DNA of 58,463 nt, taken from the NCBI GenBank assembly GCA_009602735.1, contig WELA01002258.1:1-58463 (forward strand), written 5' to 3'. Shown here piece after piece: positions 1 to 49,971 of this stretch. Every line of letters begins with the position of its first letter. Position 1 is the first letter of the stretch. The notes under the pieces were generated by a model. The model did no database searches, was not told the origin of the DNA, and worked only from the letters and a program-made list of their open reading frames with translations. The stretch comes from Mesotaenium endlicherianum (lineage: Eukaryota). The position numbers and the translations under genes were made by a program.

Positions 1-17
1 CCTTCGCGCCTCACGCG

Positions 18-4149: not shown

Positions 4150-5454
4150 TTGCTGGATGCACGGCGCAGTGCCAGCTTTGCCAGCGGCATGCACGATCTT
4201 GGGCGCTACACAGGCGACCCTATGAGAATACCCCTCCAGACAGACATGCCCATCTTCCAGAAGCGCTACCGCTACAGCCGCTTTGAGGACGACCTGATCA
4301 GCACGCAGACAGGCAAGCTAGAGGAGTGTCAGCTCATTTGTGAGTCTGCCTTCACCTACGCTGCGCCCACAGTCATGCCAGCCAAGAAGGACGCCTCAGG
4401 CAACTGGTCTGAGAAGAGGATGTGCGGTGACTATTGTAAGCTTAACGAGGTCACTGAGCAGGACAGATACCCTATGCTGACCCCTGACGAGATCTTCGAC
4501 GACATCGGCGCTTGTACTTGGTTCTCGGTGCTGGATTTGAGGCAGGGCTTCAACCAGATACCCATTGCGGAGGAGGACCAGCATAAGACGGCTTTTGGGG
4601 GATCGCAGCGTCTCTACGAGTGGAGGGTTATGCCCTTCGGCTTGAAGAACGCTCCTGCCACCTTCCAGCGAGTCATGGATAAGGAGCTCGCAGGGCTCGC
4701 CTTTGCTTGGTGCTTCATCGATGACGTGCTCGTCTTCAGTGAGACATTTGAGGAGCACGTGGCGCATATCACTACAGTTCTGGACCGCTTGGAGGCTGTT
4801 GGGCTCAAGTGTCATTCAAGCAAGTGCACCTTTGGGACCCGGGAGGTGGAGTACCTCGGGCATCTTCTGTCTTCCAGTGGTTTGGCTCCTCACCTGGCCG
4901 AGGTCTCGGCCATCACAGGCATCCCGCCGCCGACCGACCTCTAGCACTTGAGGGCCTTTCTTGGCATCGCCAACTACTATTGCCGCTTTGTGCCAAGGTT
5001 CAGCGAGCTGGCCAAGCCGCTCAACGACTTGCTACGCAAGGGCGTTGCCTACGTATGGGGACCAGAGCAGCAGGCAGCGTTTGACAAGCTCAAGGAGCTG
5101 TTGGTGAGCGCCCCAGTACTACGGCGTCCTGACTATCATAAGCCCTTCATCCTCCACATCGACTGGTCGCAGGCAGGGCTTGGAGCAGTGCTGGTGCAGG
5201 AGCATGACGGCTTCGAGCATGTGGTGGCGTATGCCAGCCGCAGCAACAACCGTGCCGAGGGCAACTACGGCTCCAATGAGGGGGAGTGCCTGGCAGCAGT
5301 ATGGGCAATTGTGCATTTCAGGCACTATCTCTACGGCACCCACTTCCGCTTGGTCACCGACCATCAGCCACTCAAGTGGCTCATGACATTGGAGCGCCTG
5401 ACGGGCAAGTACGCACGGTGGGCGCTCATCTTGCAGGAGTACATACACCTTTGA
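4150..5454 (+). pseudogene. Reverse transcriptase and RNase H of element A
   Basis: RMCGDY, LDLRQGFNQI, MPFGLKNAPATFQR, FIDDVLVFS; RNase H IDWSQAGLGAVL, AYASR, VTDHQPLKWL. TAG at 4942. Confidence 0.93.
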
Positions 5455-5455
5455 C

Positions 5456-7185: not shown

Positions 7186-7210
7186 GAGCTGGGGGGGGAA
7201 AGAAAACATT

Positions 7211-25907: not shown

Positions 25908-27133
25908 TGTCGCGACTATTATCCGTTTGACGGTGTCGCACGCGCAGCGTAAGCTACGGCCACCTAGTGCTGAAAGTCAACATTGACTCACCGACCACTT
26001 GACTAATTACATCGCAGTTAGCGGTTATGGCGGCGTCAAGACCACTGGCAAGGGGTCAATGTCAGTGTGCCCCACACCCACGGATGGGGGAGGTTTTGAC
26101 AAGACAGCCGCGAGGCTAGGAGTTGGGGATCAGCAATGAGCCGCCCAGCAAGTACCAGGTCAGGTACTGTGTGACTGGCAGATTAAGCCAGGTCATGGCT
26201 ACAATGCCAAGATAGGTTACGGCCGCCCGGTTGGGAAAACTTGAGCAAGTGGCATTTGCTTGCACGCCGCTCAGGAATTCTTAGCCATGAGCCAATTAGG
26301 CGTGACTGCCAGCTGAGAAGCTAAGCAGCCACGCGCGACAGTCACAAGGTGTGCATGCATGCTGAGTGACTACGAGTTTGAGTTGAGCATGGCTAGGCAG
26401 AAGCGACATGCAGCTAAGTTGTGTGACTAAGCACGGCATTCTCGAAAGATGACGCTGTGTGGTGCCTGCGAAAGGCACGAATCTTGCCTGAGACATGTCA
26501 TTCACTCTCACGCACCTTTGCCAAGAGGCAGAAGGAAAGAGAAGAAGGGCGCGAAGAAGAAGAAGGAGTTCCCAAGGCCATTGGAGGGCCAAAGCCCCAC
26601 GCTTCTGACGACGCTGAAGATTCTTCTGTGTATCATAGATAAGTTAGGATTGTAGGAGTTCCCAAGAGGGAATCTCACGGTTGAAGAAGGAGAACTGCAG
26701 AATAGAATCTGCTAGGAGATTAGCACAGAGTCAGCCGAACGCCACAAGTGTGTGTGTGAAGCAGCCTTAAAATGGTGAGTTGTGTGTTGATTTCCAAGTT
26801 CTCAGAAGTTGCATTCGCATCTCAAAGAGAGAGAGCAGTATTGACAGATAAAGCTCTCAGTGAAGAACTGAGTGAGCCCAGCCTGGCAGTGAAGAGCTGT
26901 TAAGGCGCGGTGTCAAGTGAAGAGCTTGACCCAGGCCAGCATAGACGTAGTTTCAGAGTTTTGTAAGCTGACTTGTGGAAGTTAAGCGAAAGCCTAAAGG
27001 GCGATTTTCTCTGGATCTGACGTTGCATGTCAAGCTGTTTAGAGTGTGATTTCTGCAAATTACAATTTGCTCACCTGTGAATCCAAGAACCTTAAGGGAT
27101 AAAGCCTATGTGGAAGTAAGAGACTTCCGTCCT
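25908..27133 (+). repeat. Terminal repeat X1 (1226 bp)
   Basis: Near-identical to 37210-38435; diverged homologue at 39878-41100. Confidence 0.95.
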
Positions 27134-27155
27134 ACTTCTGAGAACTTTAGTTCTG

Positions 27156-28860: not shown

Positions 28861-31316
28861 AAGGGTAATCAGAAGTATGATGCTATGAGTGCAGAGATTG
28901 CAGAGTTTAAAGCTCAATTTGCAAGACTAAATGTGCCTAATGTCTATTACGATGCAGATGTGGCCGAAAAGACCGTCTGCAAAGGCAAGAAGCTGACGCC
29001 TGAGAAGGTCGTGGCTGCAACGGCTGCGGAGCGCGCAGATCATGACCGTCTGGTTCCAAGGAATGCTGGGAAGCTTCCTCAGACCTTTCGGATCACTCTC
29101 GATGAGAACGAGATTGGGCAGCTACGACAAACCAAGCCTGGGCCACGCAAGACATTTAGTTTTTCGCTGGAAAAGCTGAAAGCTCTGGTGGAACACCGGA
29201 TTCAGCACATTCCTTGTCTTTCACTCGCTGATCTGCGTCTTACATACCCTTTCACGATTGAGGAAGCCGGACAGCAGCTGGACCTAGCTGAGGAAGGCGC
29301 TAACAGCGCTTCGCTGTCTACTAATTTCAGCACTGTGAGAGTGCAGCACAAGGATAGAGTTTTGACGTTTAACAACTGGGCCGCTCCCAATATCCTATTG
29401 GACACTGGCGCACAGCCAGTAATCTTGGGAAAGCGAGCTGTGAAAGCTCTGGGATTGACGGCGAGGGACCTGAAAGAAAGTCCTTTCCAGTTGAGGACTG
29501 CAATCACCCGCAAGCCTGTGGATATCACAGTAAACGTGGGGAAACCTGAGGAAGCGTCACTGTTCATAGAGTGTACGGTGACAGAGGCAAAAAACTATGA
29601 TGTTCTATTGGGGACAGAAGCTCTGATTCCCCTGGGTATGGTCATCGACCTGCGGAAGCAGAGGGTGACTTACCAGTCGACAGATTGGCAGCCGACAGGA
29701 GAAATTCCTGTAAAAATGGTTTGCTCGGGAGAAGCAAACTACGGACTGCTAGACTGCTATGTGAATGACCAGTATCCAGACCATTATGACCTCATCATGC
29801 AACGCGAAGAGAAGATCTACACCAGCATCAACATGTCGACTCCCTTGGTTTGGCAACCTTGGATTATGGAGCAACTAGAAGCTGTGAGTAACAGGGACCG
29901 TGGCCCGCAAGAGCTGCTGCCAGTTCCTTATCCAGTTAAGACTGCTGCCAATTTGATGCCTGGAGTAGACCCATTGCCGCAAGGCATTGTGAGGATGGAA
30001 GATTCTTTTCGCAGGAGAGGAGTAGTAGTGCTGGAATTGTTCGCCGGACTTGGTACCGGAACCATCGCACTGATTCAACGAGGTATCCGGGTATCCAAAG
30101 TGCTGTATGTGGACAATGATGAGAATGTTTTTACAACATTTGAGGAGGTCATGAGTCAGATGCGGCAAATGTACCATTTCAAGGCATTGGTGCCCACTAG
30201 TGTGGTGCGTCTTGTTGGAGGAAACATTCTCGATGTGAAGTCTGAGGACCTGTATGGTTACAAGATTGACTGGATTTTTGCGGGATTCCCTTGTCAACCT
30301 TTCTCGCAAGCTGGGAACAGGAGGAGATTCAATGACCCGCGAGCACAACACTGGGGAAGGATGGTGAAGATCATCAGTATGCTGCGGGAACGCCAGCATC
30401 TCTACCCACCAGTGTTTGTGATTGAGAATGTACATCCGAGGATGGATTACAACCAGATGAAGCCAGGAGATCCATGGCTGGTCTTCGACTCCACCCTGGG
30501 TCATCATGTATTGATCAACGACGCCAGGCACGGAGGACTCTCACACCGAGCCAGACTATTCTGGACCAACGGCATGTCCATGAAATCCTGAGGGAGATGG
30601 AGGAGATTACGCGGCGCCCGCCAACGGCAGTATCTGTGGGAGAAGCACTGATGGTGGAAAACAAGCCAGTGATCAGGAGGGATTCCTACCCACAGTACGT
30701 CGTCAACGAGCCAGGCCGGCCGAGAGTGGTGCTGCCCACCTTCACGGCATACCTAGGATCACGCGCTTTCGTGAATGGAGGACCAGGAATGGTCAAAGAT
30801 GTGCACGACAGAGAAGCTCAGTGGAGAGAGCCGACAGCTGAAGAGAAGGGAAGGTGCCTGGGGGTACCCAACTCCATTGCACAAGAAATTGTTGCAAAGG
30901 TGGGACAGGACAACGCTGGGAAGATATTCGGCAATATGATTGGGCATCACTCCATGACATGGTTGGTAGAGACGATTATGACTTGGCAACAAATGACAAT
31001 CTCTGACAAGCCTATGCCCAGGCCGAGGCCGGTAACGATTGGAGTCCATGTGGTGCCAACCTCTGATCAGAGAGCTATCAGGGAAACGTATCAGCGACAA
31101 AAAGAATATGCTGTTGAAAGAGACGCAGCTGAGACTGACCAAGATGAAACACTCAGAGAAACCAGAATGGTGGAGCTGACCAGGTGTCAAGACATATTGA
31201 CGCGAATTGACACTCGGATGGCGGCTCTACACGACCCTCTGGAAAGAGAGCTGCGGAGGCTGCGAGAAGACGTAACCATGGAAGACGGGCAACTGGTGCA
31301 GCAAACCCTTTGGTGA
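28696..31316 (+). pseudogene. Protease + DNMT3-like methyltransferase of B copy 1 (one frameshift ~30580)
   Basis: LLDTGAQPV; LELFAGLGTG; IDWIFAGFPCQPFS; VIENV; SHRARLFWTN; after the shift LPTF, REPTAEEKGRCLG, IFGNMIG. MTase spans ~30022-30990. Confidence 0.92.
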
Positions 31317-33046
31317 GCGCTGCAGTAAGAAAATCACAGGAGGTCCCAGCATCTGCAGAACGCTCCAGCCAAGTATTTGGGAGGATGCCGGAATGGGACG
31401 AATATACCAGTTCCGAGTTACGAAACATGGCCCCAGACCAGGTCTTCGGGAGCCCATCCCCAGACGCGGTAACATCAAGATATGAAGAACGCCAGTGCAA
31501 TATTGGCAAATGGGCCGAAGAATGCAGTCAGAATTCAGGAAATTCTGGAGGGTCTGGAAAGACCATTTGCCTGGAGGTGATTTTTGAAGAACACAAGAAG
31601 GAGACGGCCAAGAGATTGCCCGCCACACTTGCTCTGATGAGCCCAGAGCCAGAGGCCAAAGGCCAACCACAAGACACAGTTGGCAGCACAGCTGAGTCGA
31701 TCACCAGGCAAATCATGGCGCAGTTGCTGGAAGCAGACGTCCCTCGACTCAAGGAAGAGAAAGTGGCGAAAGCAGCTCTCGCTCTACAGTCAGCCATCAT
31801 CAACATGGCGAGGCTCAACACAAGAGGGGATGAAGAATTGCCGCCTCCTGGAACAGAGAAGCCGGAGGAGGAAGAGGATGCGGAGATGCAAGGCCTCTCG
31901 GAGTTGGACTCGCCATCACTCAACAATGAAGGGGACATTAGGGAAGAAATTCCACGTTTTCCCACGCCAGACTTGGATCTGCTTGACTTACAAGAGCTGA
32001 GGACAGACGACTGGGTGGCTGACCACCTGATGGGGCCAAGCCCGGCAGACCTTTATGAAGAATTAAGGTCGCCAACATCCAGTTCTCCTTCTGCCAGTCT
32101 TCCAGTGGCAGAACCCAAGTCAACCGCACAACCGCCGCAACGGCAGGAGGTGACTGCCTGCACTGCTAAAGTGGAGACAGCACAAGGAAAGCCCGAAAGT
32201 CGCGCAAGCAGACCAAGGAAGGTGGCCCGTGAGGGTAACGCATCTTTTAGGAGGATGCTAAAGCGATATTTCAAGCATAAGGGGAAGGCTCAGAGAGAGG
32301 GCGTTCCGCGAGGAACCACAGCCCCACCTCCGCCGCCTCTGCGGGATATTTTGCAGAGAGAGGGAGAGGACGGTTTGGTTCGCAGGGCAATGGCATTGGG
32401 CATTAGTGTGCCGCCAGGCATGAACACGCCCTTGTTGCAACTATCAGATCTTAGGATACAGAGGTCGAAGGAGCCTGCTCCCAGGTTACCTGCAATCCCA
32501 GGATGGAAACTGATGGATCTGAGAAACACCATCAGTTGCTGGACCGCAGCAGATGATGCCTTTCTTGCACAACTAGCGGCACCTCAAAGGCCGCAAACAT
32601 TGGCGCAGGCATGGATGATCACACCACCCGCAAGGGAGGAGTATGGCACGACCGTTGCCCGCATGGCTATTATTGAGCGAGAATGGGGCTGGGCGATCAG
32701 CCCTAGGACAGATCCCGCAGGTTTCCCAATGGCAACCCAACCTCGGCCACGTGAAGAAGGAGGAACCGGGACCAGTTGGACTGCAGTCGACGAGGAAATG
32801 TTCCTGAGGCAACCCATCCGGAGGCGCCTGACATACCCCTCAACGCAGGAGAGGCAACGCGTCATTGGGAAAGGTAAAAAGCCTAAGAAATAGGCTGCCG
32901 AACTTATGGCGACGGAGGAGCAAGCTGCAAAGCCTGCTACCCCACCTCCTAAGAATCAGGCAGAAAAGTTTGAGAGCCAGAATCAGGCAGAAAAGCCTGA
33001 GGGCCAGGATGAGGGCGGGAAGCCCCCACCTGCACCTAAGGAGTAG
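31310..33046 (+). pseudogene. Long Pro/Glu-rich linker of unknown function between DNMT and RT, ending at a conserved TAG
   Basis: ORF 31310..32893 continues in frame to TAG 33044-33046. Peptides EEIPRFPTP.LDLL.LQELRTDDWVADH and IEREWGW are shared with copy 2. Confidence 0.7.
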
Positions 33047-34646
33047 AAACTACTCGATGCCTTTGTTGGGGAGAAGCAACCTGAAACTGAGACTTTTGCC
33101 ATTGGGAAAATGGTCTCAGCCCAACAGAGAGCACAAGTAGAAAGGTTGCTGAAGAAACACCGCAAGGTATTTGCTTTCACTAAGGAGGAGATTGGTAGAA
33201 CCACTGCCAGTGAGTGTGAGATCACACTAACTACTGATAACCCAGTTAGACTAGGGCCGCATCAGCTCAGTCAGACAGAATGGGACTGTGTGGAGAAAAC
33301 TTGTGAAGAGCTGCATAAGCTCCGCATGATTGAAAAATCTACCTCAGTACATGGGGCTTCTACAGTAGTAGTTGCTAAAAAGGACGAGGCCGGCAATTAC
33401 ACTGCCACTCGTATGTGTGGAGATTACAGGCGACTGAATCTCTACGCGGAGCCAGATAGCTATGTGATGCCTACGTCGGAAAGGATCTTTGCAAATGCCA
33501 CCATCGGAAAGGTGTTCAGCATTATCGATCTGCGCCAAGGCTTCAACCAGATCCCTGTGAAAACAGAAGATCGAGGTAAGACTGCTTTCTGGGCTCAAAG
33601 GGAACTTTGGCAATGGACAGTAATGCCATTTGGGCTGAAAAATGCCCCAGCCATATATCAGAGGACTATGGATAAAGCGCTGGAGGGGCTGGATTTCGCT
33701 AAGCCATACATTGATGATGTGGTAGTATTCAGCAAGTCCATAGAGGAGCACCTCGAGCACTTGGAACAAGTGTTCCAGCGCTTGGAGAATTTCCAGATGA
33801 AGCTTCATCCTGGGAAGTGCAGATTCTTTGAGGCACACGTGCCTTACCTAGAACATGAGATTGAGAAAAATGTTATGTCCCCTCAGGCTGTGAAGACTGA
33901 AGCTATCTACAAGATACCTGCACCTGCGAATGTGTCTAAGCTGAAAGCTCTGTTAGGGCTAAGCGGATACTATCGTAAGTTTGTGAAGGATTATAGCAGA
34001 ATTGCTAAACTCTTGACGGAACTCTTGAAAAATGATGTACCTTTTGTGTGGACAGAAGCTCAGGAGAAAGCCATGAACGAGCTTAAGGAGCGGCTGGTAA
34101 CAGCCCCAGTCTTGCGAACGCCTGACTACTCCAAATTGTTCAATCTGCACACCGACTGGAGTCGTGTGGGAATTGGCGCAGTACTCACTCAGGCCACAAG
34201 CCCTAGAGAGGAGTATGTCATTGCCTATGCCTCACGCTCTAACAATCGAGCGGAGAGCAACTACTCGTCCTATGAAGGAGAGTTGCTGGCAGTGATTTGG
34301 GCGGTCACACATTTCAGAGAGTATCTGTGGGGAAGACCCTTCACACTGATCACGGATCACTTACCATTACTATGGCTGATGAAGAATGGAGACCTCACTG
34401 GTAAGTTGGCTCGCTGGGCTCTTAAGCTGCAAGAGTACCAAATGACAGTGGTGCACAGAGCAGGAGTGCTCAACAACGACGCCGATGGACTCAGCAGGAA
34501 CCCAGACCCATCTTCAGACGACAGAACAGGAGCTCGAGAGGACAAAGACCCGAGCAGCCCAGCAGAGTTGGTGGCTTGTCTAGCCGAAATGGCTGGAATA
34601 GTAGCATCAAGTGAAGCTGAGCCTCTACCCCTATTCAGTCCAGAGA
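33047..34646 (+). CDS. RT + RNase H of B copy 1
   Basis: RMCGDYRRLN, IDLRQGFNQI, MPFGLKNAP, YIDD, HTDWSRVGIGAVL, AYASR, ITDH. Open through the RNase H until the solo-LTR insertion. Confidence 0.93.
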
Positions 34647-35391
34647 TGTAAGGTCATAGGTTTATAAAGTGCATTTTTTGAGTTTCATAAAATTATGTTT
34701 TGATTAACCATTCATGTAGAGTGCATTTTTGTGGTCATTTTGATATAAAGTTCATTGAATTTGGTCAGGTATTGAGAGAGTTACGGATTTTTGAAGTTTA
34801 ATTAGTTTTGAGGTCGGTTGACGACTGTCCTTAATTCGCGCTGAGCGCGACCGTCGGATTGACCGACAGCGTCGAGCGATCTGGCCCGTTAGAATGAACT
34901 CGAACCTTCACGTAAGTTCGGCTGACGCGGAGTGCCGACTAGGTCGATTTACCTAAAAGTTTCGGTCTAGCCTAGCGCGTCTAAGATAGAATATTCTAGT
35001 AATGTCGATGCATGTATGTGGACGTCAATTCGGCCCGACACGTCAAATTAGACTGATCTGGCTTACTCACGAATATTCTGGAAGGGACGATTTGACGAAC
35101 ACTTAGGAAAATCCGTAGCTTCCTCCTGGAGAGGAGCACTTAGGCAGAAAATCATAAATAGGCATAACTTCTTTGTTTCTAAGGAGTTCTCACTTCTGTA
35201 AATTTCTACGGGTTTGTAATGACAAGGCCTTTCATCCTACATCATTTGTGAGCAGTTTCTTGCCACTCAAAATGTCAAGTAATTTTCCTAAGCTTTCTTA
35301 GCAATATGCCGCTGCACTCTTGAGTATGATTGCAACTAGCTTTGTTCCTCGTGAGTCACTACGCTTCCACTAGGGCACTCTGCCCCTTTCA
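34647..35391. mobile_element. Solo LTR (745 bp) inserted in pol of B copy 1
   Basis: TGTAAGG...CCTTTCA termini; 5-bp TSD AGAGA at 34642-34646 and 35392-35396. Copy 2 has the empty site (ccagagatctgg). Confidence 0.9.
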
Positions 35392-35396
35392 AGAGA

Positions 35397-36856
35397 TCTG
35401 GAAAGATCAAGCTACTATGCACTCGCTGAAGACGGGAACTCACTTGGAAGGACTATCAGTGAAGGAGAAGGACCAGGTAAACCATCGAGCTAAAAGGTTT
35501 TGCTGGTAATGCAACAACCTCTTCAAAATTGAAGAAATCGGTCAGGAGAAGTTAGTGCCAGAACCCATCAGGAGACGAGCCCTTATGCAAGAAATGCACG
35601 AGAACACTGGACACTATGGTGTCAAGAAGGCATATAGTCTTTTGGAGCTGTCTTACTGGTGGAGGGGCATGAAGCAGCAGTATGAAGATGTGATCAAGGC
35701 CTGCCAAAGCTGTAATCGCATCAAGGCTGGTTTTACACAGCAACATCCACACTTGCAACCTTTGCCGATCATGGGCCTAGGCTACCGTTGGAGCTGCAAT
35801 CTCGCAGGTGAGCTACCGCTGTCTAAGCGAGGTAACAAGTATATCATGGTCATGATTGAGCATTTCTCTAAGTGGATAGAGGTAGTCCCTCTGACTGCTA
35901 AGGAGAGTCTAGGGACCGCGGAAGCGTTCCTCAATGGTGTGATTGTGCGTCATGGAGCTCCAGCAGAAGTGCTGACAGACCAAGGGTCTGAGTTCCAAGG
36001 GTCTTTTCAGAAACTCTTGGACAGATGCTTCATCGATCATCGCACTACGTCTAGAGATCATCCGCAAGCAGATGGTCTCGCAGAAAGGATGGTGCAAACC
36101 ATTAAGTCTGCTTTGCGCAAGTTTTGCCTTGAGCATGACAAGCGTGACTGGGATCTAGCCCTGCCATGGCTGGTTATGGGTTACAGATTTAGCAAGCAGG
36201 CTGCCTTGGCAAATTACTCGCCACATCAGATACTGTTTGGCAGAAGTCCAGTAGTGCCCAGCAGCATCAAGCAGGAGATTGAACAGGTGAAAGACCTGGA
36301 TAGCCCTGATGAACTGTTAAAAGTGATGATGCGCCGTAAGGCGCCATTTGAGCGCATGATACCGGCTGCACTAGACAATTTAATAATTGCACAGAAAAGA
36401 GATACGCAATGTTACGCCACGACGCGAGACGGGAGCTACCACATGCAGATGACGCGAATTCAAGAAGGAGACTTTGTCTACCGCAAGCGCCAGACCAAGA
36501 CCACCATCGACACTAGTTCAGGTGCAATGATCTTGCGCGTGAAACATGCGTTTGACAATGGTGTGTTAGAACTGGAAGGTTCTGATGGTAAAACCATGAG
36601 AGACCACGTGCAGAATTGCTCGCTATGCCATTTGCCGAATATCGATCCCACAGTTAGGGTTGTGCCCAAGGAATTGGTGCCGGCCACGCCTTGTGCCAGC
36701 TGCAAAGTGCTGGACGATCAGGAAGCAATGGTAACTTGCTATAAGTGTGGTGCCCGTTGGCACACTTTCTGCATTGGCGAGGAAGAAATTATGGCAGGAC
36801 GATGGGAATGTCCTGATTGCCTTCCCAAAACCCCTAGCCGCAGGGCTGGAAAATAA
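35397..36856 (+). pseudogene. Integrase with C-terminal PHD finger, B copy 1
   Basis: HENTGH..CQSC; first catalytic D reads N (WSCNLAG), then LTDQG and ADGLAER. PHD CASC..CYKC..HTFC..WECPDC at ~36691-36820. Confidence 0.9.
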
Positions 36857-36891: not shown

Positions 36892-36903
36892 GAAAGGGAG
36901 GGG
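36892..36903 (+). promoter_or_regulatory. Polypurine tract
   Basis: gaaagggagggg directly before TGTAAG at 36904. Confidence 0.85.
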
Positions 36904-37207
36904 TGTAAGAGGAATTAAGGCAAGACAAGTATTTTTTAAATTTTCTGCTAAAGTCTTAGAATAAGCAGATGGTGAGAGCCGGGTGACAGAGAACGTCACC
37001 CTGAGTGTTGGTCAAGGCTGCATGGTGCAAGTTCTAGAACCCAGGGATGGGTTAACCCTGGTAAGGCTTGTCATCGACACACGTGCAAAGGTCGATCGAC
37101 CATGTCTGCCACACGTGAAGAGGGCCACCGACACATCAACCAGGCCAAAGGCACACGTGCTGGAAGGCTACGCACGTGCCGAGGGACCGACACTGTTAGG
37201 CACAACA
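36904..37207 (+). repeat. Repeat Y1 (304 bp)
   Basis: Near-identical to 38436-38739. Confidence 0.95.
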
Positions 37208-37209
37208 GC

Positions 37210-38435
37210 TGTCGCAACTATTATCCGTTTGACGGTTTTGCACGCGCAGCGTAAGCTACGGCCACCTAGTGCTAAAAGTCAACATTGACTCACCGACCAC
37301 TTGACTGATTACATCGCAGTCAGCGGTTATGGTGGCGTCAAGACCACTGGCAAGGGGTCAATGTCAGTGTGCCCCACACCCAGGGATGGGGGAGATTTTG
37401 ACAAGACAGCCGCAAGGCTAGGAGCTGGGGATCAGCAATGAGCCGCCCAGCAAGTACCAGGTCAGGTACTGTGTGACTGGCAGATTAAGCCAGGTCATGG
37501 CTGCAATGCCAAGATAGGTTACGGCCGCCCGGTTGGGAAAACTTGAGCAAGTGGCATTTGCTTGCACGCCGCTCAGGAATTCTTAGCCATGAGCCAATTA
37601 GTCGTGACTGCCAGCTGAGAAGCTAAGCAGCCACGCGCGACAGTCACAAGGTGTGCATGCATGCTGAGTGACTACGAGTTTGAGTTGAGCTTGGCTAGGC
37701 AGAGGCGACATGCAGCTAAGTTGTGTGACTAAGCACGGCATTCTCGAAAGATGACGCTGTGTGGTGCCTGCGAAAAGCACGAATCTTGCCTGAGACATGT
37801 CATTCACTCTCACGCACCTTTGCCAAGAGGCAGAAGGAAAGAGAAGAAGGGCGCGAAGAAGAAGAAGGAGTTCCCAAGGCCATTGGAGGGCCAAAGCCCC
37901 ACGCTTCTGACAACGCTGAAGATTCTTCTGTGTATCATAGATAAGTTAAGATTGTAGGAGCTCCCAAGAGGGAATCTCACGGTTGAAGAAGGAGAACTGC
38001 AGAATAGAATCTGCTAGGAGATTAGCACAGAGTCAGCCGAACGCCACAAGTGTGTGTGTGAAGCAGCCTTAAAATGGTGAGTTGTGTGTTGATTTCCAAG
38101 TTCTCAGAAGTCGCATTCGCATCTCAAAGAGAGAGAGCAGTATTGACAGATAAAGCTCTCAGTGAAGAACTGAGTGAGCCCAGCCTGGCAGTGAAGAGCT
38201 GTTAAGGCGCGGTGTCAAGTGAAGAGCTTGACCCAGGCCAGCATAGACGTAGTTTCAGAGTTTTGTAAGCTGATTTGTGGAAGTTAAGCGAAAGCCTAAA
38301 GGGCAATTTTCTATGGATCTGACGTTGCATGTCAAGCTGTTTAGAGTGTGATTTCTGCAAGCTATAATTTGCTCACCTGTGAACCCAAGAACCTTAAGGC
38401 ATAAAGCCTATGTGGAAGTAAGAAACTTCCGTCCT
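37210..38435 (+). repeat. Repeat X2 (1226 bp)
   Basis: Near-identical to 25908-27133. Confidence 0.95.
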
Positions 38436-38739
38436 TGTAAGAGGAATTAAGGCAAGACAAGTAGTTTTTAAATTTTCTGCTAAAGTCTTAGGATAAGCAA
38501 ATGGTGAGATCCGGGTGACAGAGAACGTCACCCTGAGTGTTGGTCAAGGCTGCATGGTGCAAGTTCAGGAACCCAGGGATGGGTTAACCCTGGTAAGGCT
38601 TGTCACCGACACACGTGCAAAGGTCGATCGACCATGTCTGCCACACGTGAGGAGGGCCACCGATACATCAACCAGGCCGATGGCACACGTGCTGGAAGGC
38701 TACGCACGTGCCGAGGGACCGACATTGTTAGGCACGACA
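38436..38739 (+). repeat. Repeat Y2 (304 bp), right terminus of the element
   Basis: Abuts X2 directly; ends GCACGACA. Confidence 0.95.
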
Positions 38740-39877: not shown

Positions 39878-41100
39878 TGTCGCAATTGCTATCCACTTGA
39901 CGGTGCCGCACGCACAGCGCAAGCCACGGCTGCCCAGGTACAGGAAGTCAGTGGTGACTCACCGGCCAAAGGACCGAGTTATCTCAGTCAGCGGTCATGT
40001 CAAAGTCGTTAACATTGTCAAAGTGGTCACGACACGTCAAACCCACACCCAAGGATGGATGGGGATTTGGACGGAGTAGTCAGCCGAAAGGCTAGGGGTA
40101 TGGAACCAGCAAGTGCCCGGAAAGGTACTGATCAATTGGCTATCTAAGCCAAGTACAACAGGGATGTTGCAGAGGCGCTGTGTGCCACCTCGGCCAAAAC
40201 CCTCAAGTGACTAGTCACGGCTTGAACGTTCATCCAAAACGTCGCCAGCCAGCCACATAGGTATGATTGTCAGCTGAAAGGCTAAGAAGTCACGCGCGAC
40301 AATCCCAACGCATGCATGCATGCTGAATGACAACTCCTAAGCTGTGTGAGAGCTGCTAGGTAAGGACGGCATGCAAGCTAAGCACTGTGACTACGGACTG
40401 GCATTCTCGAAAGAGGATAATGTGTGGTGCCTGTGAAAGGCACGAGTCCTGCCTGAAGGTGCCTCATTCTTGCTCGCATCATTGTCAAAGGAAGCTCAAG
40501 GAGCAGAAGGAGCACAAAGAAGAAGGAATTCCCAAGGCCATAGAAGAGCCGAGACGCCACGCTTCTACTGACGCTGGAAGATTTCTTCCTAAGTGTATCA
40601 TAGAAAGGTTAGACCTCAGGACTTCCCAAGAGAGGACCTCGCTGGTAGAAAGTAGAGAGTTGCAGAATAGAATCTGTTAGGAGATTAGCACAGATTTGGG
40701 TCAAACGCCACATGAGTGCGAAGGTCACTTAAAATGGTGAGTGCTGTGTTAGTTTCCAAGTTCTCAGAAGTCTCAATTGTTGAATTGCTGATAGCAAGAG
40801 TAGTCTTAACGAGTAAAGCTCTCAGTGAAGAACTGAGTGAGCCCAGTCGAGCAGTGAAGAGCTGTTAAGGCGCGGTGTTGAGTAAAGAGCTCAGACCAGG
40901 CCAGCATAGATGTGCAATTTCAGATTTTTGTAAGCTGTGACTTGTGGAAGTTAAGCAAAAGCCTTGAAGGGCGATTTTCTCTGAATGCGGCATTGCCTGT
41001 TAAGCTGCTTAGACGTGATTTTTGCAAACCACAAAACTTGTTCATTCTGTAAACCCTCAACTTGGGTGAAAGCCTGTGTGGAAGTAAGACGCTTCTGCCT
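39878..41100 (+). repeat. Terminal repeat X homologue of B copy 2
   Basis: Shares blocks with X1 (e.g. aagctctcagtgaagaactgagtgagccc) and the same first base. Confidence 0.85.
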
Positions 41101-41159
41101 TACTTTTGAGAACTTGTTGATTGGTTCAGGTGAACAAGAATTCTTGAGTCAATTGGAGA

Positions 41160-42804
41160 TTGAGGCCTGTGAAGGCTGCCGGTGTTCAACCTGGAAGGGG
41201 ACCCGGAGAAATCCAACTGTATATGCGGTTCAGGAGTGGAAGACTCTACCCCTCTGTGGAGTCTGCAGAAGGTTTTGATTCTAGCCAAAGTCCACCAGGA
41301 GGTGAGACGTCTGAGCATACTGACAAGCGGTGGAGTGAGCAACTGTCGAGAGACGAGTCTCGTCATATCCCCGCAAGCAGTGAGAACCCGGATAACACAC
41401 GAGCTTTTGCACCTGATTTGGGCAGAGAGCAAGACGTGTGGAGTAGAGTTAGTGAGTCCTCATCACTGTTCGAAATGGCCGGTGATGATCGGGATGAAAA
41501 TCCTAAGTTCAAGCTGTCTGCAAAGTGTTTTAGCGGACGAACCAGTGGAAACGGTCTCACTTTCGAAGAGTTCGATGAGATCTATTGGGCAGAATTCTTT
41601 GAGAAGATTCGGAAAGATTCTTCTTATACGCAATTTGTCGCATTTATAGGCTTGGTTCAGTACTTGGACAAGGATGCCTTGCTGCTATATCGCCAATTTC
41701 GAAAGAATGAGGATCTCACCCAGGAATGGGCATTTGGAGAACAAAAAAGGGCTAGGGATTTGAAAACCCAGGAAGAGGCTGCGAAAGCCCGAATGTCTGC
41801 TTTATCTTTAGGAAGAGCAGTGCCAATTGCACCTGTTGAGAGCATAGACTTAGCTGCACTAACACAAGAATTAACAGAGGCCATGAGGCAACTCGCTGAG
41901 GTTCAGCAAAGGGTTGCTACTCAGAACGATGATGCCGGCTCTGTCGCAGAATTGCGAAAGGTGTGTGCAAAATTGTCTGAAAAGATTGCTGAGTAACACG
42001 CAGAGCTGCACCTCTTTAGGGTCAGCAAGGCGATAGCGCCACGACAGAGGCAAGCCATGCGCAAGCCTTGGCTAGCTGTTGTAAGGACATGGAGGTTGGG
42101 AATGACTAGCTAGACCCCGAGCATTGTCTGCGTCGTTTCTTTAAGTTGCTTGAAGCACAATTCCCAAAAGATCGCAATCTTAAGGTGCACCGTTATGTGC
42201 ATTTTGTCCGTCAGAAGAACAAGACAGTCATGGAGGTTAAATCCCGATTGGTAGACCTCGCCAAAAAGGCAAAAAATACGAGCCCAAAATAGTGGCTGAC
42301 AAGTTTCTGTTGTGCTTGGGCAAGGAAACAGATCGTGAAGTCAGGCCACATCTATCCGCAAAGCACGGGATTGACTGGGACAGCGACGAGGCGGCTGAAA
42401 TAGCACGCAATGTTGAAGAAGGTAAAGTGTCGTACAAAGTGGCTTCCAGGACGCTTATGGCTCCTGAGAGGAGGGAGGAATCCTCTCCGTCTAAGGCCAA
42501 CAGCTCTAATTTTCAGTTTAAGAAAAAGAGCGGGTCTTTCAATAAGTTTGCTAAGCATGCCAACACTGCTGAAACAGCAGAGAGCTATTGGAATTGCGAG
42601 AAATCAGGACATCAGAAGAGGGATTGTTCGTACCCAGATGCTAAGCAACTATCTGCTAGCAAGGCGCATATATGTGCACATTGCAGCAAGAAGGGACACT
42701 CAGAAGATGAGTGCTGGTCTAAGAACCCAAAAACCGCCATGGGCAAATGCTGCCTTGAAAGAGGCAGGCAAGGAAAAAAAGAAAGAAAAGGGTGGCAAGG
42801 GTAA
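41160..42804 (+). pseudogene. gag of B copy 2
   Basis: ORFs 41160..41996 and 42292..42804; zinc knuckle CAHCSKKGHSEDEC. Confidence 0.8.
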
Positions 42805-45370
42805 CCATAAGTATGAAGCTATGAGTGCAAAAATCGCTGAGTTAAAAGCTCAGTTTGCGAAACTAAATGCGCCCAATGTATACTATGATGCAGATATTGC
42901 AGAAAAGACCGTCTGCAAAGGCGAGAAATTGATGCTTGAAAAGGCTGTGGACGCAACGGTTGTCGAGCAAGCAGATCACAACCGTCTGGTGCCAAGGAAC
43001 GTTGGGAAGCTTCCTCAGACTTTTCGGATCACTCTGGATGAAAATGAGATCTCGCAGCTACGACAAGCTAGGCCCGGGACGCGTAAGACATTTAGATTTT
43101 CGCTGGAGAAGCTGAAGGCCGTGGTGGAACAACGGATCCAGCATGCTTCTTTGCTTTCTCTCGCTGATTTGCATATCACTTACCCATGCACGGTTGAAGA
43201 AGCCGGACATCAGCTGGATATAGCTGAGGAAGATGCAAATAGCGCCTCATTGCCCATCAATTTCAGCAACGTGAGAGTGCAAAATTGGGATGGTGCATTA
43301 ATCTTCAACAATTGGGTAGCTCCCAACATTCTGTTGGATACAGGCGCACAGCCAGTCATCTTGGGAAAGCGAGCTGTGAAAGCTCTAGGATTGACGGCAA
43401 GGGACCTGAAAAAGAGTCCTTTCCAGTTGAGAATTGCCTCAGGACAAGTCTCAAAGTCTTGCGGGATTACCCGCAAGCCTGTGAAAATCACAGTAAAGCC
43501 AGGGAAACCTGAAGAGGCGTCACTACTCATGGAGTGCACAGTGATGGATGCAGAGAACTATGATGTTCTCTTGCGAACAAAAGCGCTGATCTCCTTGGGT
43601 ATGGTCATTGATCTGCGGAAGCGGAGGGTGACTTACCAGTCAACAGATCGGCAGCCGGCAGGAGAAATACCTGTGAAGATGGTTTGCACAGGAGAACCAA
43701 ACTATGGACTGCTAGACTGCTGCGTTAACGACAGGTACTCAGAAGCCTGCGACAACATCATGAAGCAAAAAGAGGAAGGCTATACGAGCATCAACATGCC
43801 AACACTCTTGGTATGGCAACCCCGGATCATGAAGCAGCTGGAAACTGTGAGTAATAGGGACCGCGGCCCGCATGAGTTGCTGCCAGTACCCCACCCAGTT
43901 ACCTCCACTGCAAATCTGATGCCTGGAGTTGACCCGCTGCCGCAAGGCTTTGTCAGGATGGAAGATCCTTTTTGCAAAAGGGAAGTAGTGGTGTTGGAAT
44001 TATTTGCCGGACTTGGGTCTGGGACTATAGCATTGATCCAGCGAGGAATACAGGTGGTCGAAGTCCTGTATGTGGACAATGACAACCACGCTTTTCTAGC
44101 ATTCAGAGAAGTCATGAGTCAGATGCGGCAAATGCATCATTTTAAAGGGTTGGTGCTCGCATATAGCAATGTCAAGCGCATTGCCGAAGGCAACTTTGTT
44201 GATGTGAAGCCTGAAGGCCTGTATGACTACAGGATTGACTGGATCTTCGCTGGATTTCCTTGTCAAACGTTTTCTCAAGCTCGAAATAGGAGGGGATTCA
44301 GTGATCCACGAGCACAACACTGGGGATGGATGGTGAAAATCATCAGCATGCTGCGGGAACGACAGCACTACTACCCACCAGTGTTTGTGATTGAGAATGT
44401 GCATCCAGGAATGGATTACAAGCAGATGAAGCCAGGAGAACCATGGCTGATTCTCGACGTCACTTTGGGCCATCATGTGCTAATCAACGACGCCAAGCAC
44501 GGAGGATTATCCCATAGGGCCAGAATATTTTGGACCAACGGCATGTCTATTGAGATCCTGAGAGAGATGGAGGACATTACACGGCGATCACCAACGGCAT
44601 TGACAATGGTGGAGGCGCTGGCGGTGCATACCAAACCAGTGGCCAGGAGGGATTCCTATCCAAAGTGTGTCATCAACGAACTAGGTCAGCCAAGGGTGGT
44701 ACTGCCCACCTTCACAACATATCCAAGATCCCGAGCCTTCATAGAAGGTGGACAAGGAATGGTCAAAGACATGCATAAAAAAGACGCCGTTTGGAGAGAG
44801 CCTACTGCGGTGGAGAAGGGCAAATGCCTTGGAATACCCGACACCATAGCTTGGCATGTAGCCGGTGCTGTAGGGTCAGATGAAGCTGCAAAGATTTTCG
44901 GCAACATGATTGGGCAGCACTCTATGACTTGGTTGGTGGAAACAATCATGACGTGGCAGCAGTTGACCTTCACTGACAAGCCTATGCTGAGGCCAAGATC
45001 AGTGACAATTGGGGTCCATGTGGTGCCAACATCTAATCAAAGGGCTATCAAGACGGCACATCAGCAACAAAAAGAATCCGGTGTGCAAAAAGACGCAGCG
45101 GAAGCTGCCAGAGACAGAGCATTCAGGGAAGGTAGGGTGGCTGAATTGATGAGATGCCAGGATCTGTTGGATCGGATTGATAATCGGACCAATGAATTAC
45201 AAGCACCTCTGGAAAGAGAGGATACACCAATGGGGGACCAGGCGCCTAAAGGGAACGCCGCTGCCAAGAGTAGAAGACGATACGCAGGACACCCCATCAT
45301 CTGTGAGAAACGCCACTCACAACCAGATGCTTGGGAGCCCACCTTCCGGAGCCACTACATCAAGACGTGA
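42730..45370 (+). CDS. Uninterrupted protease-DNMT3-like methyltransferase fusion frame, B copy 2
   Basis: One frame within ORF 42410..45370: LLDTGAQPV ... LELFAGLGSG ... AGFPCQTFS ... VIENV ... HRARIFWTN ... LPTF ... IFGNMIG. MTase spans ~43984-44960. Confidence 0.93.
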
Positions 45371-47103
45371 GGAGACTCCAAAAGATGCCATATCAAAGTA
45401 TGATACCCACCTCAGCCCAAGAGCAGCTGGGCACGGAGACTACTGGCAGGAAAGCTCAAGTAGTTGGGAAGCTAACCAAAAGTGTCCATTGTCTTCACCA
45501 GAGCAAGCGCCGTTATAAGACATGTCAGAAGAGTCTGAGAAGAAGACCCCCGAGCCAACGCCTAAAGAAATTGGATATAATCAAAATTAGGGCGAGAACG
45601 CCAATGCAATATTGGTGAATGGGCTGAAGAGAGTAGCCAAGATTCAGGAGATTCTGTAGGGCTGCAAAGACCATATGCCTCGAAGTGATATTCAAAGAAC
45701 GCCAGGACGAGTTGAACAAGAAATTTTCTACAACACCTGCCTTGATGAGCCTAGAGCCGCAGGCTAGGGGCAACAACAGGGTTCAGCCAGTCAGAAAGCT
45801 GAATCCATTACAAGGCAGATCATGGAGCAGTTGCTGCAAGCAGACGCTCGACAGCACAAGGAAAAGGAAGTGGCTAAGGCAGCAAGCACGCTGCAATCAG
45901 CTATTGTCAACTTGGCAAAGCTCAACACAGATAATGATGGAGAGCCACCACCTCCTGGAGTGGAGAAGTCAATTGAAGATGAGGCAGAAATGCCAGACCT
46001 TCCAGGGTTTGACCTGCCGTCAATAACCAATAAAGAGGAGATACAAGAAGAAATTCCACGTTTTCCTACCCCAAAGCTGGATCTGTTGGAGCTACAAGAG
46101 CTCAGGACAGATGACTGGGTGGCCGACCACTTCATAATGGAGGGGCCCAGCCCATCAAATCTATACAACTATCTGAGGTCGCCTACATCCAGCACCCCAA
46201 CCGCCAGTTTTCCAGCACCAGAAGCTACCCCCCATCAGCTACAACAGCCGCTGGAAGTGGATGCCTGTACCTCTAAGGTGGAACCAACACAAGGTAATCC
46301 TCGCGGTCGCGCAAGCAGACCAAGAAAGATGGCCCGGGAAGGGAATGCACCTTTCAGGCGGATGCTGATGCGTTATCTCAAGTATAGGGAACAGCTCAGA
46401 GAGAAGGGGTTCAGAAAGGAACCATGGCTCCGCCTCCGCAACCTATCCTGGAGATTTTGTAGAGAGAAGGAGAGCATGGCTTGATTCGCAAAGCCATGGC
46501 ACTGGGAATTCACAGTCCCATGGTGCGTCCTTCATCCACTGGAACGTGGGAGAAGGACAATTCAGCTCCTAGGACATTTGCGATTTCTGAAAGGGAACTG
46601 GTAGAGCTGAGAAGCACCATAAGCCGCTTGACAGTAGAAAATGCTATATACGCACAACTAGCTGCGGCTCAAGACCCCAGACTTTGAAACAAGCATGGAC
46701 GGTTACGCCACCAGCCAGGGAGGAGTTTGGCACAACCGTTGCGCGCATTACTACTATTGAGCGCGAGTGGGGTTGGACAATTGACCCCAGAGCAAATCCA
46801 GCAAGGTGGCCTTTGTCAAACCCGCCCCCGCCACGTGAAGAGGGAGGAACAGGGACCAGCTGGACTGCAGCAGATGAAGAAAAGTTCTTGAGGCAGCCCA
46901 TCCGGAGGCGTCTGACATACCCCACTCAACACAAGAGGCGACAATCCATTGAAAAAGGTACAAAACCTAGAAAGCAGGCCGCCGAGCCTAAATTAGCGGA
47001 GGAGCAAGCTACGAAGCCTGCCACTCCACCTCCTAACAATCAGGCAGAAAAGCCTGAAGGTCAGGATGAGGGCGAAAAGCCCCCACTTGAACCCAAAGAG
47101 TAG

Positions 47104-48926
47104 CAACTACTGGATGCCTGTGTTGGGAAAAAGCAACCGGAAACTGAGGTTTTCGCCATTGGAAAAATGGTCTCAGCCCAACAGAGAGCACAAGTAGAAA
47201 GGCTCCTGAAAAAGCACCGCAAGGCGTTTGCTTTTACCAAGGAGGAAATAGGTCGAACCACTGCCAGTGTGTGTGAGATCACACTAACTACTGATAACCT
47301 AGTCAGACTTGGGCCGCATAAGCTCAGTCAGACCGAATGGGACTGTGTGGAGAAAACTTGCCAGGAGCTCCACAAGCTCGGCATGATTGAGAAATCCACC
47401 TCAGTACATGGAGCTCCCACAGTAGTAGTTGCCAAGAAGGACAAGGCTGGCACTTATACAGCCACTCGTATGTGTGGAGACTACAGACAACTGAATCTTC
47501 ACACGGAGCCAGACAGCTATGTGATGCCTACACCAGAGCGGATCTTTGCGATTGCTACCACCGGGAAGGTGTTCAGCATCATCGATCTACGCCAAGGCTT
47601 TAACCAGATCCCTGTGAAAACAGAAGATCGAGGTAGGACCGCGTTCCGGGCTCAAAGGGAACTTTGGCAATGGACGGTAATGTCGTTTGGGCTAAGAAAT
47701 GGCCCAGCCATCTTTCAGAGGACTATGGACAAAGTGCTGGAGGGGCTGGATTTTGCAAAACCATACATTGATGACGTAGTGGTGTTCAGCAAGTCCATAG
47801 GAGAGCACCTCGAGCACTTGGAACAAGTGTTCCAGCGCCTGGAGAAATTCCAGATGACGCTGCATCCTGGAAAGTGCAGATTCTTTGAGGCACATGTGCC
47901 TTACTTAGGTTATGAGATTGGGAACAATGCTATGTCCCCTCAGGCTGTAAATACTGAAGCCATTTACATGATACCTGCACCGGCGAATGTGTCTAAGCTG
48001 AAAGTCCTGTTAGGGCTAAGCGGATACTATTGTAAATTTGTGAAGGACTATAGCAGAATTGATAAATCCTTGACAGAGTTCTTGAAAAAGGACGTACCTT
48101 TTGTGTGGACGGAAGCCCAGGAGAAGGCCATGAACGAGCTCAAGGAGTGGCAGGTAACGGCCCCAATTTTGCAAACGCCCAACTACTCCAAGCCGTTCAG
48201 TCTACACACTGACGGGAGTCGTGTGGGAATCGGCGCAGTACTCACTCAGGCCGCAAGACCTAGAGAGGAGTACGTCATTGCCTATGCCTCGCGCTCTAAC
48301 AATCGAGCGAAGAGCACCTACTTGTCCTACGAAGGAGAGCTGCTGGCAGTGGTTTGGGCTGTCGCACATTTCAGAGAGTATCTATGGGGAAGACCCTTCA
48401 CAGATCACTCGCCGTTGCTCTGGCTGATGAAGAATGGAGACCTCACTGGTAAATTGGCTCGCAGGGCTCTTAAGCTCCAGGAGTACCAGATGACAGTGAT
48501 ACATCGAGTAGGTATACTCAACAACAACGCCGATGGACTCAGCAGGAACCCAGACCCATCCGCAGACGACAGAAAGGGAGCTCAAGAAGACAAAGATCCG
48601 AGCAGCCCAGCAGAATTGGCAGCCTGCCTGGTCGAAATGGCTAAAATGGTAGCGTCAGGAGAAGCTGAGTCTCTACCCCTGTTTAGTCCAGAGATCTGGA
48701 AAGATCAAGCCACTATGCATTGGCTAAAGATGGGAGTCCACATGGAGGGATTATCTGTGAAAGAAAAGGACTAGGTAAGCCATCGAGCTAAAAGGTTTTG
48801 CTGGAAACGCAATAACCTCTTCAAGATTGAAGAAATCGGTCAGAAGAAGTTGGTGCCAGAACCCACCAAAAGGCGAGCTCTGGTGCAGGAAATGCACGAG
48901 AATACTGGACACTATGGTGTCAAGAA
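47104..48926 (+). pseudogene. RT + RNase H + integrase start of B copy 2
   Basis: ORF 47167..48774 with YIDD and RNase H motifs; in frame with the upstream TAG at 47101. Confidence 0.92.
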
Positions 48927-49814
48927 TGCGACATTTCTGCTTTTCAAGAGGATCTTTTCCTCGGTATTCAAGGAATATGGTGGAAAGAAAATCTATGTAC
49001 TTGTGCAAATTGACAAATCCTCGAGAAAGCGAAAATGAAAACTAACGTAGAATGTGTGCTTGTGAGAGTTGCACTCACAATGACTCTTGCGAGTATTTAT
49101 GCTTGCAAATCGTGAGGCTCTGGAGTGCTTCAAGTCACCACCTAGGGCACTGGTTCATGTTCAACAAAAAAGGTCGAAGGGGTACGACCCATTCGGCCGA
49201 ATGCTCGAAACGCACCGTTTGGCGGTTTGGAGACTTTTCGACGGTTTCCGAAAAACTGTTTCACGCCAAACGGGCGTTTTCGCGTTCGCGTTCGCGGAGT
49301 CGCTTACACATGCTTTTGTCATGAACCGGGAGTTATAAATAACTACTTCGCCAATCGGTTAGGTGTGAACGTTTCAAACGACGAGTTGCGGGGTCGAATC
49401 CACTCCGATGCAAAGTCGCTTTGCGTATTATGTGTCGTTTGACTTTTACGACTGTTTCTTCGTATTAACGACTGGTCGTAAATGCAACATCTATGACTGT
49501 ACATTATCTGAAATAATGACAATCATATCAACTTAATCAAGCCGAGATATTAACTTATCATCTCATGATTAATCAAAGTAGCTTTATGAATAATTATGTC
49601 GTACTTTTGCGGAGTAGTCGAGTTACGTTACGACGCTTTTTGCAATAGTATCTCGGTCATTTTGCCAATCGACCGGGAATTAATCGGCACACGCGTGTGG
49701 CAATTAATTGAATATGATACAATCATTTATCAAATAATATGATAAATAGTATAACGTACTTTAGGTAATTGGGAAAACGTCCCAAATACGCCTAAAATAG
49801 CTCGAATCGTTACA
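48927..49814. mobile_element. Solo LTR (888 bp) inserted in the integrase of B copy 2
   Basis: TG...CA termini; 5-bp TSD AAGAA at 48922-48926 and 49815-49819. Copy 1 has the empty site (gtcaagaaggcatat). Confidence 0.88.
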
Positions 49815-49971
49815 AAGAAGACATATAGTCTTCTAGAGCTGTCTTACTGGTGGAGGGGCATGAAGCTGCAGTGTGAGGATGAGATGAAGGCCTGCAAAAG
49901 CTGCGATTGCGTCAAGGCTGGTTTTACGCAGCAACACCCACACCTGCAACCTCTGCCAATCATGGGCCTAA

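Follow-up and report, generated by a model that had tools for sequence, protein, structure and literature searches.

We analyzed a 58,463-nt stretch of DNA from the zygnematophyte alga Mesotaenium endlicherianum (contig WELA01002258.1, hereafter the window), which holds three retroelements bearing a DNA methyltransferase (DNMT) domain. They belong to two families, one comprising elements 1 and 2 and the other element 3. In elements 1 and 2, sequence comparison places a DNMT3-type cytosine methyltransferase upstream of an in-frame TAG that separates Gag, protease, the enzyme and a long linker from the reverse transcriptase (RT), and the enzyme very probably belongs to the abundant Gag-level product. 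A DNMT3-bearing Gypsy element with two repeats, A and B, in the order A-coding-B-A-B is a kind already known since 2018, when KnitGypsy-Dnmt3 of Klebsormidium nitens was described by de Mendoza et al. (PMC5890265). What differs here is the TAG between the enzyme and RT. We propose that a Ty3/Gypsy-type element makes DNMT3 with Gag at capsid-like levels and that the enzyme methylates CG on new double-stranded DNA before insertion, a proposal for which we hold the scales to be level.

A DNMT3-type domain in a Gypsy element

A sequence-only reading of this DNA had described, at 42730..45370, a Gypsy polyprotein with an intact-looking DNMT3-like methyltransferase between protease and RT, and a second copy of the domain at about 30022-30990. 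The former is our element 2 and the latter lies in element 1. The coding features of the three elements are as follows.

Element 2
41223..47103 (+): inferred open reading frame 1 (ORF1), about 1960 codons, with Gag, two zinc knuckles, protease, DNMT and a long linker; broken by frameshifts, with a candidate start codon (alignment with element 1)
42404-45370 (+): open frame of 988 codons, stop to stop, with its stop at 45368 (ORF list)
43301..43660 (+): retropepsin-type protease, DTG at 43337 (Pfam aspartyl protease models; ratio of nonsynonymous to synonymous substitution rates, dN/dS, 0.18)
43985..44950 (+): predicted DNMT3-type C5 cytosine methyltransferase, unbroken (PF00145, profile, fold, dN/dS 0.16)
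47101..47109 (+): in-frame TAG right before RT, then CAA CTA; the TAG is common to element 1 at 33044
47104..48690 (+): RT and RNase H (Pfam RVT_1, E-value (E) 8e-29; RT_RNaseH_2, E 2e-30; dN/dS 0.12 and 0.23)
48691..49970 (+): start of the integrase, cut off near 49970 and interrupted by an 888-bp solo long terminal repeat (LTR) at 48927-49814 with duplication AAGAA

Element 1
30022..30980 (+): DNMT domain (PF00145, E 8.4e-18), with a 1-base frameshift near 30580
33044..33046 (+): TAG before RT, then AAA CTA (alignment with element 2)
33047..36856 (+): RT, RNase H and DDE integrase with a C-terminal PHD finger; solo LTR inside at 34647-35391, duplication AGAGA

Element 3
1..7200 (+): element of a distant GC-rich family, its 5' part outside the window; protease at 282-644, RT, RNase H, integrase and a PHD-like end

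The assignment to Gypsy held: the integrase carries rve and H2C2 domains (Pfam), and the order protease, RT, RNase H, DDE integrase is that of Gypsy. The PHD finger at the C-terminus of the element 1 integrase was matched by Pfam at E 3e-4, and PHD is present in 99% of the members of the matching Atlas cluster. No tyrosine recombinase was matched among the 16 frames scanned with Pfam, so the elements are not of the DIRS/Ngaro type. One frame of element 2 does join the protease to a full C5 methyltransferase. PF00145 matched the domain with E 6.8e-15 and 55.7 bits, where the cut-off is 22, and motifs I, IV (Cys), VI (ENV), VIII (RxR), IX and X are present in the standard order (ELFAG at 43997, GFPC at 44252, ENV at 44393, HRAR at 44513, PTAVE at 44801, FGN at 44897), not circularly permuted as in DRM. 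The aspartyl protease models matched the frame at E 2e-4 to 1e-3, with scores that fall short of their cut-offs. The polyprotein start near 42730, however, proved to be the product of a 5-base deletion in element 2 relative to element 1.

By profile and by predicted fold the domain is closest to DNMT3, as the sequence-only reading had expected, and we regard it as a diverged DNMT3-type enzyme. A profile built from all three copies in the window matched DNMT3A along its length (E 7.6e-13), HaeIII at 2e-10 and DRM2 at 3e-3, and a 61-sequence profile gave 1.9e-24 for DNMT3A, 5e-15 for DRM and 3e-11 for HhaI. The model predicted from the 61-sequence alignment had a predicted local distance difference test score (pLDDT) of 90.4, compared to 34.7 for a model built from a single sequence only. 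In a Foldseek search with the former, the ten best matches were DNMT3 structures (3B/3C/3A; template modelling score, TM, 0.66-0.69) and HaeIII came at rank 17 (TM 0.62). Speaking against this class, a single-sequence search with the element 2 domain returned HaeIII first (E 2.5e-5), HhaI and phage enzymes, with DNMT3A at E 1.7. A phage or bacterial origin, suggested by these single-sequence matches, was set aside on the profile and fold evidence. For element 3, the top matches of the N-terminal piece of the domain were DNMT3C and DNMT3A (E 1e-6), and the search with the middle piece gave no relevant match.

The DNMT domain is under purifying selection, with its catalytic residues present. Between elements 1 and 2, which are about 79% identical, its dN/dS was 0.16 (bootstrap interval 0.11-0.23, 318 codons) and thus not neutral, compared to 0.18 for the protease and 0.12 for RT; all 11 segments fell between 0.09 and 0.25, and all these values rest on this one pair of copies. 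The catalytic Cys and Glu are kept in 97 of 97 aligned domains, and two Arg in 96 and 94 of them. Synonymous divergence between elements 1 and 2 is uneven, about 0.75-1.25 across most of Gag-DNMT-linker (42277-46880) and 0.35-0.5 over the protease, RT and RNase H (RT and RNase H at 46900-48690), which may reflect recombination between subfamilies.

All three DNMT-bearing elements in the window are broken, and element 2 is a dead copy: its gag is broken, its linker frameshifted, its integrase interrupted and cut off, and the DNMT domain alone is unbroken. The impression of an intact domain is right, although the copy that carries it is not intact. Likewise, the domain of element 1 was found almost exactly where it had been placed, but its frame is split by the frameshift near 30580. 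The DNMT of element 3, at about 2711-3665, has a stop at 2990 and a frameshift near 3265. In this element a long linker separates the protease from the DNMT and motif IV reads GWEC instead of GFPC; a Glu stands at this position of GWEC in 56 of the 97 aligned domains. In the pairwise alignment of elements 1 and 2, each gag frameshift is private to one copy or the other, so the parental ORF1 was probably read as one frame. We infer a parent with a single frame of about 1930-1960 codons (Gag-protease-DNMT-linker), the TAG, and about 1020 codons of RT-RNase H-integrase-PHD.

The TAG codon ahead of the reverse transcriptase

The enzyme had been placed between protease and RT within one polyprotein. 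This stands for the order of the domains but not for the frame, which stops at 45368 in element 2 and is followed by linker frameshifts and by the TAG at 47101. In both copies, GAG TAG immediately precedes RT, at 33044 in element 1 and at 47101 in element 2. Because private stops over about 2090 aligned codons are so few (four in element 1, none in element 2), chance sharing of the TAG appears unlikely. Downstream of it, RT was still under purifying selection after the copies diverged (dN/dS 0.12), and both sides of the TAG are below 0.3. We then considered contigs of four runs, representing three samples and two species labels, over 32876-33075. With the threshold set at 5%, positions 33044 and 33045 showed no alternative letter, 33043 varies, and one further contig reads GAA TAG CAA CTA. 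On these comparisons, we regard a TAG separating Gag-protease-DNMT-linker from RT as family-wide.

Whether RT is reached by readthrough or by splicing, the enzyme would lie on the Gag side; hence its very probable place in the abundant product. In retroelements, Gag exceeds Pol by about 20:1 (PMC2194720). In Tj1, an in-frame stop after Gag is required for transposition, according to the part of the source available (PMC4600332). Our sequences offer some features of a leaky stop. A similar long stem-loop is predicted 3' of the TAG in both copies (z -2.5 and -3.3), and the next 110 bases beyond this region show no such fold. The wider readthrough consensus after a stop is CARYYA, and CAA CTA fits it; in 15347 coding bases we counted 48 matches to CARYYA. 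We consider TAG readthrough the likelier source of RT-RNase H-integrase.

Several observations weigh against this. The context CAA CTA is found in two of three sequences (element 2 and one contig), and element 1 has AAA CTA. The stricter type I context, like that of tobacco mosaic virus, is UAG followed by CAA UYA (PMC2754532), which CAA CTA does not match. The 110 bases 5' of the TAG fold equally well (z -5.1 and -2.2), and reduced synonymous change 3' of the TAG was not found (5/29 vs 97/409, p 0.5). Element 3 has no stop at the corresponding position, and DNMT and RT share one frame in 7 of the 150 best relatives described below. In the contig comparison, differences appear only 31 letters or more from the end of a piece; 33044-33045 are at this limit and 33046-33047 outside it. 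Moreover, such stops are not always leaky: the gag-pol junction of Tca2 has an internal promoter, according to the part of PMC2194720 available.

The TAG could instead be the last three bases of an intron, with splicing, as foamy viruses use it, supplying the message for RT-RNase H-integrase and the enzyme still on the Gag side. The sequence that lends itself to this is a possible donor in the A repeats:

26772-26780, 38074-38082, 40734-40742 (+): ATG-GTGAGT directly past the TTAAAA box, in the three A repeats

AAAATG followed by GTGAGT in all three A repeats accounts for three of the four GGTRAGT matches between 25900 and 50000, and the ATG joined to the base past the TAG is in the RT frame. 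However, the 30 bases before the TAG hold 40-43% pyrimidines; the four host-like acceptors used for comparison had been selected at 75% or more, which makes the contrast no more than indicative. The donor ATG also lies upstream of the transcript start implied by self-priming (see below), and no RNA joint is listed, though the RNA depth there is zero. Splicing is in our view unlikely; an internal promoter, as at the Tca2 junction, would be an alternative to it (PMC2194720, in part).

Split repeats, self-priming and element ends

The repeats and the putative priming and integration sites are the following.

Element 1
25908..27133 (+): repeat A1, 97.6% identical to A2
26796..26809 (+): putative self-primer, exact reverse complement of 27134-27147 (14/14 pairs)
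27134..27147 (+): putative primer-binding site, starting at the first base past A1 (complementarity)
36892..36903 (+): polypurine tract, its last base adjoining B1 (sequence)
36904..37207 (+): repeat B1, TGT...ACA, 95.7% identical to B2
37205..37212 (no strand): palindrome ACA-GC-TGT at the B1/A2 junction, proposed integrase site (sequence)
37210..38435 (+): repeat A2, its end matching the point where the primer-binding site follows A1
38436..38739 (+): repeat B2, ending CGACA, the inverse of the left end TGTCG (sequence comparison)

Element 2
39878..41101 (+): left repeat A, beginning TGTCG, 71% identical to repeat A of element 1
40757..40771 (+): putative self-primer, about 25-30 nt past the TTAAAA box, 15 bases pairing with 41102-41116 with one G-U
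41102..41116 (+): putative primer-binding site immediately 3' of repeat A (complementarity)

Element 1 thus reads A1, coding region, purine tract, B1, GC, A2, B2; element 2 is truncated and its repeat A alone is visible. In both elements the bases just past the first A repeat can pair with a stretch inside that repeat, as listed. Among simulated repeats, 2 of 3000 held a 13-mer complement. From this complementarity we are largely confident that the elements prime their own reverse transcription in the manner of Tf1. No accumulation of read starts was seen at the putative self-primer, but RNA reads there are too few to place the 5' end of the transcript. The window contains no tRNA gene, and host tRNAs were not searched as a primer source. 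The elements resemble Tf1 and Tj1 in a primer site complementary to a stretch of their own 5' repeat, and Tj1 in an in-frame stop ahead of the enzymes. In contrast, Tf1 and Tj1 have two ordinary LTRs and 5-bp duplications, with no methyltransferase reported in the part of the source available, and the Tj1 stop comes after Gag, here after protease-DNMT-linker (PMC4600332).

The end of A2 coincides exactly with the primer-site boundary of A1, and the start of B2 with the purine-tract boundary of B1. If the minus strand is primed after A and the plus strand before B, the usual course of reverse transcription would leave B-GC-A as terminal repeats; joining these ends and cutting at ACA-GC-TGT would then give the genomic order A-coding-B-GC-A-B, with ends TGTCG...CGACA. 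A linear copy of this form, joined at its ends and cut by the integrase at the internal palindrome, is probably how these elements arose, judging from their junctions. One contig of run X1 links the end of B via GC to an A-like start, and elements 1 and 2 start at the same base of A with no B before it. Foamy virus integrase cuts the palindromic LTR junction (PMC1180852). As in prototype foamy virus, a palindromic CA..TG junction would be cut on a circle, here only as a proposal; in the virus, however, the palindrome arises on end joining, whereas here it lies inside the repeat and the joined ends form the internal junction (PMC1180852, in part). Counting against this route, the only full-length copy, element 1, has no target-site duplication, and a DDE integrase should leave one of 4-6 bp.

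The A repeats differ by 0.024 and the B repeats by 0.044 substitutions per site. CCAAnCAC precedes both elements (25900-25907, 39870-39877), and the right flank of element 1 is CGAATGG (38740-38746), so that the empty site would be an imperfect palindrome; from two left flanks and one right, a target preference is possible. The two flanks of element 1 are unlike in composition. Troyka elements, which have CG...CG ends, 3-bp duplications and an ordinary LTR pair and occur in animals only (PMC12440569, in part), were excluded by the TG...CA ends and split repeats. The solo LTRs at 34647-35391 and 48927-49814 belong to other families, each with a 5-bp duplication. Both are CpG-rich (observed/expected 1.1 and 1.6) with low CHG, unlike their surroundings, and the one at 34647-35391 is very abundant in run X1 and transcribed.

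Relatives and possible role of the enzyme

The link to published charophyte Gypsy elements suggested by the sequence-only reading holds for KnitGypsy-Dnmt3. The likeness covers the Gypsy domain set, an intronless unpermuted Dnmt3-related domain with its catalytic residues, A-coding-B-A-B, Ka/Ks under 0.2 (here 0.16) and a streptophyte alga as host (PMC5890265). In the text description of that element, figures aside, the domain lies in the Pol frame with RT, whereas here the TAG divides the two; the host belongs to another algal class, and self-priming and circle-type ends have no mention in the part of that paper available (PMC5890265). SymbioDIRS-Dnmt3 of Symbiodinium, which methylates CG in yeast, likewise has a Dnmt3-type domain and A-coding-B-A-B, with a tyrosine recombinase in contrast to the DDE integrase with PHD finger found here (PMC5890265, in part). 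EpiLTRs of Cymbomonas and Euglena are also LTR retrotransposons with a cytosine methyltransferase, but theirs is near DNMT4 and accompanied by an adenine methylase and a chromodomain, and their authors set them apart from the streptophyte Gypsy-DNMT3 elements (bioRxiv 10.64898/2026.05.21.726589, in part). In the literature covered (titles and abstract openings, with most subscription papers outside it), we found no such element in Mesotaenium, no stop between methyltransferase and RT, and no self-priming or circle integration for the DNMT3-Gypsy group.

A HMMER search over 1.84 billion representatives returned 479 proteins (E up to 0.001), the best 150 of which are 24-34% identical to the domain. 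Word-index protein searches with the domain gave no match at either length range, and neither metagenome scans (with the domain itself and with relative P0006) nor a viral scan with RT gave any loci. Among the best 150, the domain stands alone in 60, after RT/RNase H or directly before integrase in 70, after the protease without RT in 13, and before RT in one frame in the seven noted above. Six of the 13 protease-DNMT frames end no more than about 20 residues past motif X, for which decay or gene-calling could be other causes; the 13 frames agree with a stop between the enzyme and RT. A K. nitens relative, GAQ93235.1 (marked partial), is a protease-DNMT protein that ends after the DNMT. Hosts were named for 6 of the 30 looked up: on the protease side Klebsormidium nitens, three Closterium strains and Mesostigma viride, and in Scenedesmus sp. 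PABB004 a relative with the domain between RNase H and integrase. This last layout (70 of 150; P0015-P0152) often includes a PHD finger, its named host is the chlorophyte Scenedesmus, and no description of it was found in the literature covered.

In a tree made up of 97 element-type domains only, with 56 of the 150 relatives left out as short or lone domains, a long branch carries elements 1 and 2 beside P0006 (0.94), among protease-side forms; deeper support was weak. GAQ93235.1 fell in the same part of the tree (support 0.57-0.83). In an RT tree of 44 sequences with one outgroup, elements 1 and 2 grouped with two single-frame protease-DNMT-RT elements (0.94).

In the life cycle that we propose, the enzyme would be made with Gag, upstream of the TAG, in capsid-like amounts, and readthrough would yield RT-RNase H-integrase. 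The protease would release the enzyme from the Gag-level product. Self-primed reverse transcription would give the linear copy with B-GC-A termini, whose ends would be joined before the integrase cuts ACA-GC-TGT. The released enzyme would methylate CG of the double-stranded cDNA, so that the DNA would arrive pre-marked. By analogy, we lean slightly towards such methylation of the cDNA before insertion. The CG specificity is carried over from dinoflagellate homologs and DNMT3; dinoflagellate retrotransposon DNMT3 domains methylate CG in yeast (PMC5890265, in part). The full combination, a green-algal Gypsy lineage with self-priming, end-joined cDNA and att-palindrome integration, in which DNMT3 at Gag stoichiometry pre-methylates the circle and a leaky stop sets the methyltransferase:integrase ratio, is put forward tentatively, as less likely than not.

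Four points tell against cDNA methylation. The methyl-transfer activity of the domain is predicted only, from motifs and selection. The Klebsormidium domain gave no methylation in yeast, which its authors call inconclusive (PMC5890265, in part). In three RNA runs, the depth was 0 over 28859-30606 and below 0.4 over 30607-31043, with maxima of about 4 for repeat A and 64 for the unrelated solo LTR; the runs hold 1.0-1.4 billion letters each, of which 6-24% were read, with no host-gene control alongside. Finally, elements 1 and 2 had CpG observed/expected ratios of 0.57-0.62, compared to 0.89 for element 3, 0.70 for the host gene region and 0.43 for a neighbouring Gypsy without the enzyme. CpG loss does not exceed that of this neighbour, so no signature of self-methylation was found. 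As for abundance, one DNA run contained 14,875 contig pieces on element 1, with a summed word depth over its coding bins of 1.3-5.8 x 10^4 compared to 41-113 for the longest single pieces listed. This depth is no copy number; we infer a large family.

The enzyme might rather act in the nucleus, on the insertion site or on resident copies, steered or complemented by the integrase PHD finger and damping its own family. The PHD finger itself, the fit of a high stoichiometry with a diffusible enzyme, and the near silence of the family in the three RNA runs agree with this, and self-limitation is among the options given in PMC5890265. However, host methylation silences too, Klebsormidium copies bear host-type CHG/CHH marks (PMC5890265, in part), and Pfam revealed no accessory domain for targeting on the enzyme; we consider this reading unlikely. 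Still less probable is that the domain has been retained for DNA binding or a structural role, or that this long-branch family has lost the activity. The long branch, the low identity to the best relatives, the inactive homolog in yeast (PMC5890265) and the absent CpG signature would fit such a loss, but neither copy lacks a catalytic motif, and the dN/dS of the domain equals the values for protease and RT.

A TAG that is an old nonsense mutation in a trans-mobilised non-autonomous family, with a repeat order due to tandem-copy recombination or assembly error, is very improbable: three broken copies, a CAG-to-TAG change elsewhere (32891, element 1), the absent target-site duplication and the unlike flanks of element 1 speak for it, but RT past the TAG remained under purifying selection after the split (0.12), both elements start at the same base of A without B before, the junctions coincide exactly with the primer site and purine tract, and Klebsormidium has a published element with this order of repeats (PMC5890265).

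The remaining loci of the window are a host gene for a receptor-like kinase, whose malectin-like exons are many and arranged in tandem (8100-22300, -), and, behind the truncated element 2, an ordinary Ty3/Gypsy without methyltransferase (50678-55964, +). A second copy of the RT region of the latter, 89% identical, starts near the window end (57541-58463, +). One exon of this kinase gene matches ME000129S00311 of the Joint Genome Institute Mesen1 set, with 100% identity over 99% of 125 residues; the search gave two proteins, both from Mesen1.

The 2018 paper left the role of retrotransposon DNMT3 open, and its Gypsy case was Klebsormidium only (PMC5890265). A selected, unbroken DNMT3-type domain is now found in an alga of the lineage nearest to land plants. 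The Mesostigma, Closterium and chlorophyte relatives, among which the domain takes two positions, point to an ancient and widespread association. Should the circle reading be true, a DDE integrase would normally use an internal site of joined cDNA, which is an old question of retrovirology. The Gag-side placement of the enzyme predicts many enzyme molecules per particle and therefore gives its proposed role in cDNA methylation a testable form.

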